Of a stretch of 64,000 bases of DNA, positions 60,254 to 63,322 are shown piece by piece (position 1 is the stretch's first letter; every line of letters starts with the position of its first letter). A program made the translations under genes and the position numbers. The notes below the pieces were generated by a model. It saw only the letters and a list, made by a program, of their open reading frames with translations. It was not told the DNA's origin and ran no database searches. Source of the stretch: a bacterium (GTDB lineage Bacteria > UBP6 > UBA1177); assembly GCA_017405875.1 (NCBI GenBank), contig JAFQZM010000038.1, forward strand, positions 89,261 through 153,260, given 5' to 3'.

Positions 60254-61708
60254 ATGAAAAAAGTTTTAACGATTTCAGTTTTTGCTGCTTGTCTCGTTTC
60301 GTTCGCTTCGTGCGGAAGCAGCGGTGAGGGCGGCGGTGAAAGTTTTTACGGTCCACAGTGCGGCAACGGCAAAATCGAATCCGGCGAAGTGTGCGACGGT
60401 GATGTAACCTGCGGTGAAGCGGGACATTTCTGGCCGGAAGGCAAAGCAACCTGCAATTCTGACTGTTCTGCTTACGATACCAGCAAATGTGTGGCTCGGG
60501 ATCCTAGCGATAAATGCGGAAACGGGCAGATTGACAGCGGCGAATCCTGCGAACAGGGCGACACTAAACCGTGTTCCGAGCTTTCAGACAACTTTACTCA
60601 GGGCGATGCAAAGTGCAAAAGAGACTGCCGCGGATGGAATCCGGAAGATTGTTCTAACGGTGGAAAGGTCAAACCTTGTTCTCTGATTTTTGAATGCGTA
60701 AGAAAATGCGCCGATTCTTCCTGCGAAGCTGACTGCAAAGCGGCCGGAACAGATCAGGGTGCCGCTCTTTATGCTGACCTTGAAACATGTGCGGCTGCAT
60801 GCGGCGGCGTTACGGACGAAGATTGCCTCATAAACAACTGCTACAACGAATATTATACATGCAATCCTAGTAAAAAATGCGGAAATAAGGTGCTTGACGA
60901 AGGCGAATTGTGCGAAAAGAAAGATACCAAGCCCTGTCAGGAACTCAACACGGATAGTAAGCAGTATCAGCCGGTAAACGAAGCTGTCTGCAACTCTTCA
61001 TGCACAGGTTGGGATACATTTTCCTGCGTTGATATCAATGCTCTCACCTGCTATCAGGTTTTTGAATGTGTTCAGGAGTGCAGCGATTCAGAGTGTGAAG
61101 CGGCCTGCGTTTCAAAAACCTGGGCAGAAGCAAAGAGTATATACGACACAATGATGGCTTGTCTCGACAAGAACTGTCCGGTAATCACTGATGAGTGCAT
61201 GAACGAGTTCTGCAAATTCCAGACTGATTCATGCAAGACTCATCTGACCTGCGGAAACGGCATCGTTGATAAACAGTATGAAGTTTGTGATACCAAAGAT
61301 GAAAATGCAGGATTTATAGATTGCGGCGAAATAAAGGATGAAAAAGGCGAATCTATGTATGAAGCTGGAACCGGAACAGCTTTCTGCGGACCAAAGTGCA
61401 CCACATTTGAGACCGATTTGTGTTACAGATTCTGCAGCTGTGCTGAAGTTCAGAAGTGCATAGAGCAGGAATGCGGCGGTTATCCGAAAAGCAACGCCGA
61501 AAATACCGATGAAAAGATTGCCTGCATGGAAACATGCGAAAGCTGGGGAACTTATGTAGGAAAGGGCGATACGGCAGGTTACCGCAGATATATGGAAGCT
61601 TGTTCCGATGATAACGGAGCTACGGCTTGGGATTCAGATGCATGCCGTCAGCAGTTAAGTTCAGACTGCAGCGATACCGATACAAACGACCCCAGATGTC
61701 CTTACTAA
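60254..61708 (+). CDS. Modular Cys-rich lipoprotein (myxobacterial CGNG repeats alternating with helical CxxxC modules)
   Basis: Lipobox FASC; 56 Cys in 484 aa counted; CGNG..E.C units x4. Confidence 0.8.
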   Translation: MKKVLTISVFAACLVSFASCGSSGEGGGESFYGPQCGNGKIESGEVCDGDVTCGEAGHFWPEGKATCNSDCSAYDTSKCVARDPSDKCGNGQIDSGESCEQGDTKPCSELSDNFTQGDAKCKRDCRGWNPEDCSNGGKVKPCSLIFECVRKCADSSCEADCKAAGTDQGAALYADLETCAAACGGVTDEDCLINNCYNEYYTCNPSKKCGNKVLDEGELCEKKDTKPCQELNTDSKQYQPVNEAVCNSSCTGWDTFSCVDINALTCYQVFECVQECSDSECEAACVSKTWAEAKSIYDTMMACLDKNCPVITDECMNEFCKFQTDSCKTHLTCGNGIVDKQYEVCDTKDENAGFIDCGEIKDEKGESMYEAGTGTAFCGPKCTTFETDLCYRFCSCAEVQKCIEQECGGYPKSNAENTDEKIACMETCESWGTYVGKGDTAGYRRYMEACSDDNGATAWDSDACRQQLSSDCSDTDTNDPRCPY

Positions 61709-61784
61709 AATAAAATCCGATATTTCTCAGATAAATTCTTTTTAGATTTATTCCACACCGAGCTATAGTGGTAAAATAAAATTT

Positions 61785-63122
61785 TCAATCAAGAAGAAAA
61801 GCCATGTAGTAGGGCAGCGTGATTTTTCCGCCTGAAATTCCGATGTTGTTTTCAGAAAGTTTATAGCAGGTTTTGACTTCATACTGCGGGTTTTTGAGGA
61901 TCGTGTTTGCCGATTTTGTGTTGCCGTCTGTGGCTTTGACCTCGATCAAAGCGATTTCTCCGCCGATTTTTGTAACAAAATCCACTTCAAGTCCGGAGTC
62001 TTTGTGAAAGTAGTAAAGCGGTCTGGACTCTTTTGAAAAACAGTCTGCGATTATGTTTTCAAAAACCGCGCCTTTATAAATTCCGAGTTCGCCGCTGAGT
62101 ATTTTTGACGCGCTTCCTTTTTCGAGCATCGCAGTAAAAAGCCCTGAATCCTGCATGTAAAGTTTGAATACGGAATCGATCTTGTTGCCTTCAAGAGGTT
62201 CCGAAATATTTGAAAGGTTGTAACAGATATTGATTATTCCGCAGTCATAGAGCCACTGTATCGCAGCCTGATATTTTTCGGAACGACCGTGTTTGTCAAT
62301 GTCGGCATAGATAAATTTTTTGTTTTCTTTGGAAAGCTGGGCGGGAATCGAATCAAAAACGCGGTTTATTCTGGCTAACAGCGAAAAATCAGTTTTTTCA
62401 TTTTCGTTCTCATCCAGATGTTTGCCAAAATCATCTTTGTATTCCTCAATAATATCACGCTGTTCCCTGTAAACGACATTCATGTCGCCTGTTTTGATGA
62501 AACGGTCTACAATGTAGGGAAGTCCGCCCACGCACAGATATTCCTTGAAGTAGCGCAGCATTGCCTTATGAGTCGCTTCGCTGACCGGAGTTTTGTTTTT
62601 CAGGCACTCTTTCAGATAATCTATGACTTTTTCATCAACACCTTTTACCCATAAAAATTCCTCAAAATCCATCGGTTTCATATATATGATGCGTTCAAAA
62701 CCGGTCGGAATCCCGCGTCCGCTTTTTTTGTTGTAACCTTTTATGCCGAGAAGCGATCCTGTTGCGATAATGTCGTATCTTCCGTCCTCCATAAACGGTT
62801 TTATGCTTGCTCTCGCGTTGGAACACTCCTGAATTTCGTCAAAAATAATCACCGTTTTTCCCGGTTCGAAGCGCGACTTTGGGAAAAGTGCGGAAATATC
62901 GACAGTTATGCGGTCAATATTCAGATCACTGTCAAAGATTTTTCTCGCAGAATCGTTTTCCTTGAAATTGATGTAGATCACATTTTTGTACTCAGCTTTT
63001 GCAAATTCCAGCACACTGTAAGTTTTGCCTATCTGCCGCATACCTTTTACGACAAGTGCTTTCTTTTTGCCGCCTGAATTCTTCCAATCCTTGAAATCAT
63101 TCATAATTTTTCGTCTATACAT
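61785..63122 (-). CDS. AAA_14-type ATPase with DUF4143 / PD-(D/E)xK-like C-terminus
   Basis: Walker A GMRQIGKT, Walker B IIFDEIQ, IATGS, EEYKDDF, EVDFV..IEVKA. ATG 63122 has a GGAGG RBS. Confidence 0.88.
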   Translation of the reverse strand: MYRRKIMNDFKDWKNSGGKKKALVVKGMRQIGKTYSVLEFAKAEYKNVIYINFKENDSARKIFDSDLNIDRITVDISALFPKSRFEPGKTVIIFDEIQECSNARASIKPFMEDGRYDIIATGSLLGIKGYNKKSGRGIPTGFERIIYMKPMDFEEFLWVKGVDEKVIDYLKECLKNKTPVSEATHKAMLRYFKEYLCVGGLPYIVDRFIKTGDMNVVYREQRDIIEEYKDDFGKHLDENENEKTDFSLLARINRVFDSIPAQLSKENKKFIYADIDKHGRSEKYQAAIQWLYDCGIINICYNLSNISEPLEGNKIDSVFKLYMQDSGLFTAMLEKGSASKILSGELGIYKGAVFENIIADCFSKESRPLYYFHKDSGLEVDFVTKIGGEIALIEVKATDGNTKSANTILKNPQYEVKTCYKLSENNIGISGGKITLPYYMAFLLD

Positions 63123-63143
63123 ATCCGCCTCCAATGCTTGAAA

Positions 63144-63234
63144 TACACTTTTCCAAGCGACTTTTTCACATAATAATACACTTTTTCAAGGGAGTTTCCA
63201 AGTAAAAATTACACTTTTTCAAGTGAGTTTTTCA
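63144..63234. repeat. Three 25-bp direct repeats at 33-bp period over the ATPase promoter
   Basis: TACACTTTTCCAAGCGACTTTTTCA (63144), TACACTTTTTCAAGGGAGTTTCCAA (63177), TACACTTTTTCAAGTGAGTTTTTCA (63210); minus-strand TTGGAA-17-TATTAT at 63201-63173. Confidence 0.85.
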
Positions 63235-63322
63235 GATCCCAAAATAGGTTGGATTTCGGCGAACAACGATAAATTTCAGCTTTACAAATCGGCTTTTGAT
63301 AGTTTCGCCGGACGGTGAACGC

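Follow-up and report, generated by a model that had tools for sequence, protein, structure and literature searches.

A gene for a predicted ATPase-nuclease lies behind three phased direct repeats

The subject of this work is a single gene and the direct repeats that precede it, both located near the end of a 64,000-nucleotide (nt) stretch of DNA from a bacterium of the lineage UBP6, UBA1177 (assembly GCA_017405875.1, contig JAFQZM010000038.1, positions 89,261 to 153,260 of the forward strand). This whole stretch is called the window below. The gene (61785..63122, minus strand, with its stop codon at 61785-61787) encodes a protein of 445 amino acids (aa) composed of the Pfam domains AAA_14 and DUF4143, and it is a member of the PADLOC candidate family PDC-S01. 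Its open reading frame (ORF) spans 61785-63134 when begun at a TTG codon. However, the ATG at 63122, giving the 445-aa product, is most likely the start, because a Shine-Dalgarno sequence read from the DNA, GGAGG (63128..63132, minus strand), is placed 6 nt upstream of it and because gene callers use the same start on 24 metagenome contigs. This slight correction of the start codon is the only one needed in the first-pass annotation of the region, as every other particular given there, that is the repeats, the promoter and the protein motifs, withstood the present analysis.

A direct-repeat search returned three copies on the minus strand, starting at 63141, 63174 and 63207, and thus the start-to-start distances are exactly 33 and 33 base pairs (bp), as previously noticed. 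The copies are 68-84% identical to the reference copy over 31 nt, and a 14-nt core, CTTGAAAAAGTGTA on the gene strand, is present in all three with no more than one mismatch. The predicted recognition box is asymmetric, about 24 bp long, and reads aAAAcTCnCTTGAAAAAGTGTAt at this locus. The best sigma-70-like site upstream of the gene in a consensus scan (63173..63201, minus strand) consists of TTGGAA (63201-63196), a 17-nt spacer and TATTAT (63178-63173), matches the consensus at 9 of 12 positions and overlaps the middle repeat, where the -35 and -10 elements had been placed in the first-pass annotation. Relative to the putative transcription start, the distal box 1 (63207..63237) would cover approximately -65 to -42, the middle box 2 (63174..63204), which lies between and over the two hexamers, approximately -32 to -9, and the proximal box 3 (63141..63171) approximately +1 to +24. 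The conserved box core is located mostly outside the -35 and -10 hexamers, and the same geometry of promoter and boxes is kept in four orthologs from other species. Since the repeated boxes overlap the gene's own promoter-like site, as judged by consensus scans, the position of the array is that of an autoregulatory operator.

The protein resembles an Orc1/Cdc6-like ATPase fused to a nuclease

The Pfam search assigned residues 24-161 to AAA_14 (E 5e-24, 85.1 bits, with a cut-off of 27) and residues 254-401 to DUF4143 (E 5e-30, 104.7 bits, cut-off 28.1), while the PADLOC model of PDC-S01, PDLC04786, covered residues 2-444 (E 9e-142, 470.8 bits), which makes the protein a full-length member of this family. 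No NCBIfam family was matched, and a sequence search of the PDB gave nothing at E 0.01 or better. The motifs named earlier can be read directly from the sequence. The P-loop ATPase motifs (Walker A GK[TS] and Walker B DE) are intact: Walker A is GMRQIGKT (G27-T34, codons at 63021..63044, minus strand) and Walker B is formed by D95-E96 (codons at 62835..62840, minus strand) within IIFDE, residues 92-96. The PD-(D/E)xK core, E379-V-D381-F ... I-E394-V-K396, is encoded at 61935..61988 (minus strand) and comprises EVDF at 379-382 and IEVK at 393-396; its catalytic residues sit on the predicted strands 379-386 and 389-395. In an alignment of 116 homologs, G27, G32, K33, E96 and K396 are invariant, whereas D95 and E394 are each found in 115 of 116 proteins, and position 381 is occupied by D or E in the same number. 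Such conservation indicates that both catalytic centres are under purifying selection, and the protein is predicted to be an active ATPase-nuclease, more than a repressor.

The AlphaFold model of the protein has a predicted local distance difference test score (pLDDT) of 86.7. In this model, residues 1-162 form an AAA+ base, residues 163-245 a helical lid, and residues 246-335 a region of a helix and a beta-hairpin, partly of low confidence (pLDDT below 50 at 269-277), which is probably winged-helix-like. Residues 336-445 are modelled as an alpha-beta-beta-beta-alpha-beta domain bearing D381 and E394-x-K396. The PDB neighbours of the whole model found by Foldseek are a Walker ATPase of Pyrococcus abyssi (2qen, E 7e-8), Orc1/Cdc6 (1w5s), subunits of the origin recognition complex (ORC), RFC, MuB, TnsC and DnaA; for 2qen, 1w5s and ORC the E-values range from 7e-8 to 4e-5 with low TM-scores of 0.27-0.55. 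When the C-terminal residues 240-445 were used, the top neighbours were PD-(D/E)xK nucleases (McrC, Can2/Card1/Cdn1, Bax1, XisH and DdmD), with weak scores and a best E of 8.5e-3. The assignment of the protein as an ATPase joined to a PD-(D/E)xK nuclease, already made in the first-pass annotation, is thus in agreement with the Pfam domains, with the catalytic conservation in homologs and, at weak scores, with the nearest folds of the C-terminal part. Taken together, the models suggest an Orc1/Cdc6-like AAA+ ATPase fused to a PD-(D/E)xK nuclease domain via a probable winged-helix region, and such a predicted fold fits a DNA-docking ATPase.

Arrays of the same period precede members of the gene family

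The 445-aa protein has 14 matches, with identities of 31-39%, in the genome from which the window comes (G000; 2.5 Mb in 47 contigs): 13 are full-length paralogs and the remaining one is truncated. Altogether, DUF4143 is encoded by 20 genes of this genome. A check proposed in the first-pass annotation was whether homologs each carry phased repeats of their own, and these were indeed found: nearly all of the 13 full-length paralogs have two to four direct repeats at 32-33 bp within the 150 nt 5' of the start codon, and the array of each paralog is of its own, different sequence. A blind scan of all 2.5 Mb for triple 14-mers (up to two mismatches, spacing of 26-41 bp) gave only 12 sites with a 32- or 33-bp period. 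Ten of these, recovered under such strict conditions, lie directly upstream of paralogs, and the remaining two are coding repeats by appearance. Chance is therefore excluded as the source of the window repeats.

Homologs taken from one genome per species made up 80 loci, including those of Treponema, Fibrobacter, Lachnospiraceae, Bacilli, Bacteroidales, Coriobacteriia, Kiritimatiellia, Endomicrobium and Mycoplasmatales. With spacings of 26-42 bp allowed, at least three boxes were present in 55 of the 76 usable upstream regions and two boxes in another 20, and the spacing was nearly always 32 or 33 bp. After pooling of the loci, 84 of 117, spread across phyla, carry three to five boxes (three boxes in 61 arrays, four in 22 and five in one), with every spacing between 31 and 34 bp: 33 bp occurs 127 times, 32 bp 62 times, 34 bp twice and 31 bp once. 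Among 794 other windows of the same loci, used as controls, five contained three copies, and the sole case with 32/32 spacing was an 8-bp microsatellite.

The relation of boxes to promoters is also shared. In approximately 44 of 53 loci with a strong sigma-70-like match, the -35 hexamer starts no more than about 50 nt from the last box, and in 37 of the 53 it starts within -45 to +30. In the commonest geometry, as judged by consensus matches, the TTG of the last box provides the -35 element and the -10 element is situated just past the box; the ortholog group of the window has one further box downstream of the -10. A cultured example is RUMAL_RS17400 of Ruminococcus albus 7, where three boxes are followed by TTGACT, 17 nt and TATGAT.

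Several repeats of other kinds were encountered in these scans. Among non-coding-looking sites with other periods in the same genome are GTGAATCAGGAATC at 28/35 bp (contig C18, positions 7-45, at the contig end, and contig C45, 77581-77638) and TAAGTAGCCTTTAA at 31-35 bp (contig C5, 13094-13186). In a metagenome-assembled genome of Bacteroidales (locus L056, positions 1674-1760), an 8-bp microsatellite, (AACTYAGY)n with about 11 units, lies directly upstream of a LysR/OxyR-like regulator gene and may be a site of slipped-strand phase variation.

The box is conserved together with the protein encoded next to it

When the copies of an array are compared, identity amounts to 84.5% in the best 20-nt block but to 35.5% in the 13 nt that complete the period, a value close to that expected at random for such a base composition. 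Conserved cores standing beside diverged spacers imply that the arrays are old, that only the cores have been maintained, and that we are not dealing with recent tandem duplications. The family consensus derived from all registered arrays, aAAAaTCnnTTGAAAAAnTGnAat, is asymmetric and about 24 nt long, and is built of a near-universal G-AAAA-n-TG-n-A part and of variable flanking positions.

In the own genome, long box cores are found solely in their own array. The core of the window is kept by orthologs in five congeneric species (74-97% protein identity), and boxes of proteins with 44% identity or more share on average 72% of positions with the window box, as opposed to 48% where protein identity is below 40%. 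The homolog of Phocaeicola dorei, at only 53% protein identity, keeps 22 of the 24 box positions. On these comparisons, the box sequence follows the protein clade across phyla. That a non-coding 24-mer should be retained in different phyla, and vary with the clade of the protein encoded beside it, is hard to reconcile with binding by a host factor and easy to reconcile with binding by the protein which the same unit encodes.

The array may serve as an operator for its own gene product

We are almost certain that the array has a function in cis and is specific to the family. It seems probable to us that the array is bound by the cognate protein; this self-binding is suggested by the private pairing of each array with its gene and by the co-inheritance of the two. 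The complete proposal, in which the boxes are docking sites of the protein and their occupancy represses its own promoter, combines several such steps and is held with moderate confidence only, as we infer from sequence that the effect on transcription is repression.

According to this proposal, the protein would recognise the asymmetric box of approximately 24 bp, aAAAcTCnCTTGAAAAAGTGTAt in the window, which is offered to it in three head-to-tail copies every 33 bp. As 33 bp correspond to three helical turns, the bound protomers would sit along approximately the same side of the helix. With the boxes at about -65 to -42, -32 to -9 and +1 to +24 of the putative promoter, their cooperative occupancy, possibly controlled by ATP, would repress transcription. 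A potentially toxic ATPase-nuclease might in this way be held at a low, self-set level.

There are several observations which speak against such a role or narrow it. Boxes at or upstream of the -35 element could also serve activation. In the own genome, four of six DUF4143 genes from other subfamilies (contigs C18:152753, C9:177781, C23:1199 and C5:97944) have no array, one of the four having an inverted repeat, TTAAGGGGG...CCCCCTTAA; the array is therefore specific to a subfamily and not needed by every member of the family. Residue-box covariation, computed as mutual information for 335 variable columns of the protein against the 24 positions of the box over 74 non-redundant loci, singled out no DNA-reading domain: the top pairs are scattered over all domains and dominated by shared ancestry, and when distances were regressed domain by domain, the C-terminal half showed only a weak excess (partial r of about 0.1). 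When residues 240-445 were modelled separately, the linker was of low confidence and the fold search returned no winged-helix match. Finally, the strict conservation of the ATPase and nuclease sites means that autoregulation cannot be the whole function of the protein.

Array and gene form a cassette with variable flanks

The only stretch which the window shares with orthologs placed in other genomic contexts is the array with the ORF, about 1.45 kb (61779..63232, minus strand), which we call the cassette. In a blastn comparison with the ortholog from a congeneric species (L015; 97% aa and 91% nt identity), similarity extends from -110 relative to the start codon to +9 past the last sense codon, so that the homology stops where the array ends distally and, on the other side, about 6 nt beyond the stop codon. 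The same limits were obtained for three other orthologs (L016-L018), whose flanks are unrelated, as well as for most ortholog pairs of other paralog groups and for one intragenomic duplicate (L009/L011). In the ortholog comparisons, the flanks match other parts of the genome or nothing. The earlier remark that the gene is inserted between unrelated genes is therefore well founded, and can be extended to the array and ORF as one unit, the flanks of which differ between species.

The immediate neighbours in the window (genes for a peptidase S9, a Cys-rich lipoprotein, SpoIID and NifU/NifS) represent a housekeeping setting, with no defence genes alongside. In this species the cassette has a single, fixed site: all 24 metagenome contigs encoding the identical protein share the same context, and the array is identical in the five loci that were aligned. 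As for its presence or absence in relatives, which the first-pass annotation had suggested checking, the cassette is missing beside the peptidase S9 gene in nine congeners. In these nine, the stretch next to the peptidase gene is non-syntenic, and the search for an empty site defined no insertion junction or target duplication. Four of the nine have HAD and nucleotidyltransferase genes beside the peptidase gene, both of which are absent from the own genome. In the congener G005 (locus L132, contig C29, positions 119-1500), the peptidase gene is followed on its 3' side by a gene for a 366-aa DUF1016_N + YhcG_C nuclease of the PD-(D/E)xK type. In the flank of this nuclease gene, 101 bp from the 3' end of the peptidase gene are duplicated. 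This YhcG-type gene and the duplication that accompanies it mark the intergenic site as a hotspot for nuclease-type cargo.

Some slots hold different family members between conserved flanks in different species. For instance, the slot occupied by the ortholog in the congener G004 holds, in the own genome, the distant DUF4143 gene L141 with arrays phased at 23 bp. This gene (contig C24, 53240-54680), in which Pfam confirmed both AAA_14 and DUF4143, lies behind two different sets of triple direct repeats, both with a period of 23 bp: one is GATTCCnCACTTGGCGCGATTTT, and the other has the core AAGACAGATT (plus-strand reading).

The cassette was searched for terminal inverted repeats, a target-site duplication, a 3'-end site, an integrase, a transposase and a recombinase, and none of these was found. 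Members of the family are seldom met with on plasmids (60 of 72,556 records) or in phages (13 of 50,697), and carriage by a plasmid or phage was for this reason rejected as a vehicle of the cassette.

Two features of the surroundings deserve a separate mention. The box of the paralog L007, AACTTGCTTTTTCGTG, recurs 3' of the L007 stop codon (contig C34, 81440-82560; locus L137, positions 1640-2760) as a leader with two boxes and, about 1 kb farther, as a single additional box. Between these two portions of the downstream array lies a gene for a 309-aa Cys-rich lipoprotein on the opposite strand, and the last box precedes a gene for a 678-aa Cys-rich lipoprotein. In sequence, these downstream boxes look like a duplicated array that was later split, or like a footprint of the cassette. 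Convergent with the cassette of the window is the gene (60254-61708, plus strand) for the 484-aa predicted Cys-rich lipoprotein, which matches no Pfam family, and it is genes similar to this one that flank the L007 cassette. Variable genes of Cys-rich surface proteins and cassettes thus seem to share variable regions.

Alternative explanations of the array

The least attractive explanations are those in which the repeats have nothing to do with the protein. That they reflect chance similarity, a recent functionless slippage duplication or a structured RNA leader can practically be dismissed: the AT-richness of the region is all that could be quoted for it, the genome-wide and control statistics as well as the diverged spacers beside conserved cores refute it, and a search of Rfam gave no match at E up to 1. 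It is also highly improbable that another host regulator binds the repeats, or that they are tandem promoters or UP-type elements. Although each box contains a TTGAAA-like hexamer, which acts as the -35 element in many loci, neither a single host factor nor RNA polymerase alone can account for at least 11 private sequences, one for each paralog; the conserved core of the window falls largely outside the hexamers, and conservation of the boxes across phyla goes along with the protein clade. Tandem promoters in particular were rejected, since the conserved cores are private to each paralog. The remaining explanations accept that the array belongs to the protein and concern what the two are for. 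One of them, suggested in the first-pass annotation and implied by the PDC-S01 label, and regarded by us as possible yet doubtful, is an anti-phage effector of the abortive-infection type, with the array serving as a resting platform or an autorepressor from which infection would release or activate the ATPase-nuclease. The strong match to the PDC-S01 model would speak for it, as such models were defined from members embedded in BREX, DISARM or type I restriction-modification (RM) loci, and so would the ATPase + PD-(D/E)xK architecture reminiscent of McrBC and other defence nucleases, the hotspot-like, cassette-swapping distribution typical of defence genes, and the YhcG-type nuclease gene found at the same site in a congener. 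Nevertheless, families of the PDC class are candidates only, for which their authors took even one embedded instance as reason enough to investigate (though with further filtering and curation). In a published phage challenge of E. coli B, a PDC-S01 representative did not figure among the systems protective against T4, T5 or T7. The window copy, moreover, has no adjacent defence genes, and 14-20 paralogs in a small genome would be unusual for a defence gene.

We find it unlikely, though compatible with autorepression, that the array acts chiefly as a cis site by which the cassette spreads or is maintained, in the manner of an iteron, an origin or a homing site. On this site the protein would polymerise, and its nuclease would nick or cut at or near the boxes; the unit would then be a selfish mobile module, and autoregulation a secondary matter. 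Such behaviour would agree with cassette limits that fall on the distal array edge and the stop codon, the flanks being different in species of the same genus, with the intragenomic duplicate having the same limits, with the same chromosomal slot holding different family members in different species, and with the partial L007-box arrays downstream of L007, split by an inserted gene. The 14 matches and 20 DUF4143 genes in a genome of 2.5 Mb, the scattering of close relatives over phyla, and the initiator and transposition ATPases among the fold neighbours (Orc1/Cdc6, DnaA, MuB and TnsC) point in the same direction. On the other hand, neither the hallmarks of a mobile element listed above, namely terminal inverted repeats, a target-site duplication, a 3'-end site, an integrase or a transposase, nor an empty site in congeners was found; the cassette occupies one site in all 24 metagenome contigs of the species, the family is rare on plasmids and phages, and the constant orientation and tight coupling of the array to the promoter suit regulation. 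Still less likely, in our opinion, is a version which unites these ideas, in which array and gene would be an autonomous self-recognising module: an Orc1/Cdc6-like ATPase-nuclease would polymerise head to tail on its private 33-bp lattice, and the lattice would be at once an operator, a platform silencing the nuclease, and a cis site for copying, moving or defending the cassette. Binding of the protein to its own operators, with repression as the consequence, remains the explanation we prefer.

Comparison with known systems

Archaeal Orc1/Cdc6 proteins consist of an AAA+ base and lid with a DNA-docking region, and their genes are found beside repeated asymmetric boxes of about 20-30 bp, each paralog being paired with its own adjacent site. 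Our locus resembles them in its predicted base and lid with a putative DNA-docking region, in the adjacent asymmetric boxes and in the private pairing, with Foldseek E-values of 7e-6 to 4e-5. However, the TM-scores are only 0.29-0.37, and the PDB contains no sequence match at E 0.01 or better. Furthermore, the boxes of the window are all direct and form a strict 32-33-bp lattice over a promoter, instead of being inverted around an AT-rich unwinding element, and the protein bears a conserved nuclease. A role of the family in replication is implausible because there are 14 copies in one chromosome.

Plasmid Rep-iteron modules, such as those of P1, F, pPS10 and R6K, likewise have helically phased direct repeats beside the gene of the binding protein, private specificity, and autorepression by promoter occupancy. 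The first two of these features recur here at the gene of the presumed binder, and we propose the third. Nonetheless, the fold is AAA+ and not Rep, the context is chromosomal, the period is 33 bp rather than about 22 bp, and no replication function is indicated. Membership in this class of replicons was rejected, as the protein does not have the Rep WH1-WH2 fold, the locus is chromosomal and the family is rare on plasmids.

With McrBC, the protein has in common the coupling of an AAA+ NTPase to a PD-(D/E)xK nuclease, and McrC (6ut6_G) is among the best neighbours of its C-terminal part (probability 0.98, with a weak E of about 1e-2). McrBC differs in having two subunits, a GTPase motor and recognition of modified DNA, and no private site array at its own promoter. 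As regards the array, a precedent is provided by the RptR repressor, whose site in the promoter of a defence island embedded in a type I RM locus is made up of three direct repeats (PMC12255303). Yet RptR is a small dedicated regulator with a 6-bp palindrome, whereas the presumed binder in the window is a 445-aa ATPase-nuclease with asymmetric boxes of about 24 bp. The Orc1/Cdc6, Rep-iteron and RptR systems are the nearest analogues in function, but we do not class the locus with any of them; it is best described as a putative self-operator array on an ATPase-nuclease cassette.

Significance for the PDC-S01 family

PDC-S01, a PADLOC candidate defined by Pfam AAA_14 + DUF4143 (COG1373), ranks among the commonest defence candidates of bacteria, archaea and the rumen, and is said to be the fourth most common in prokaryotes. 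One survey counted about 29,500 bacterial and 10,000 archaeal DUF4143/PDC-S01 loci, and in another PDC-S01 was the most frequent single 'defence' locus of rumen genomes. DUF4143 is listed in the PD-(D/E)XK superfamily (PMC3424549), and the family has been described as an ATPase fused to a PD-(D/E)XK domain, very abundant and not validated (PMC12988326). In the papers on DUF4143/PDC-S01 that could be searched, we found no mention of upstream repeat arrays, autoregulation or cassette behaviour, and literature searches for AAA_14 and COG1373 gave nothing relevant.

These are among the most numerous uncharacterised genes of prokaryotes, with 20 of them in one genome of 2.5 Mb. The gene-specific box of about 24 bp on a 33-bp promoter lattice is the first concrete and testable candidate for a DNA substrate of the family, and the array suggests how a potentially toxic ATPase-nuclease may be restrained. 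Given how the cassette behaves and how weakly the defence label is founded, one may ask whether tens of thousands of 'defence system' calls in genome surveys really represent immunity genes. If the idea of a self-recognising module, unlikely as we consider it, were to prove true, PDC-S01 would be largely a family of selfish cassettes with sequence-specific, ATP-dependent nucleases, and not one of classical immunity genes.

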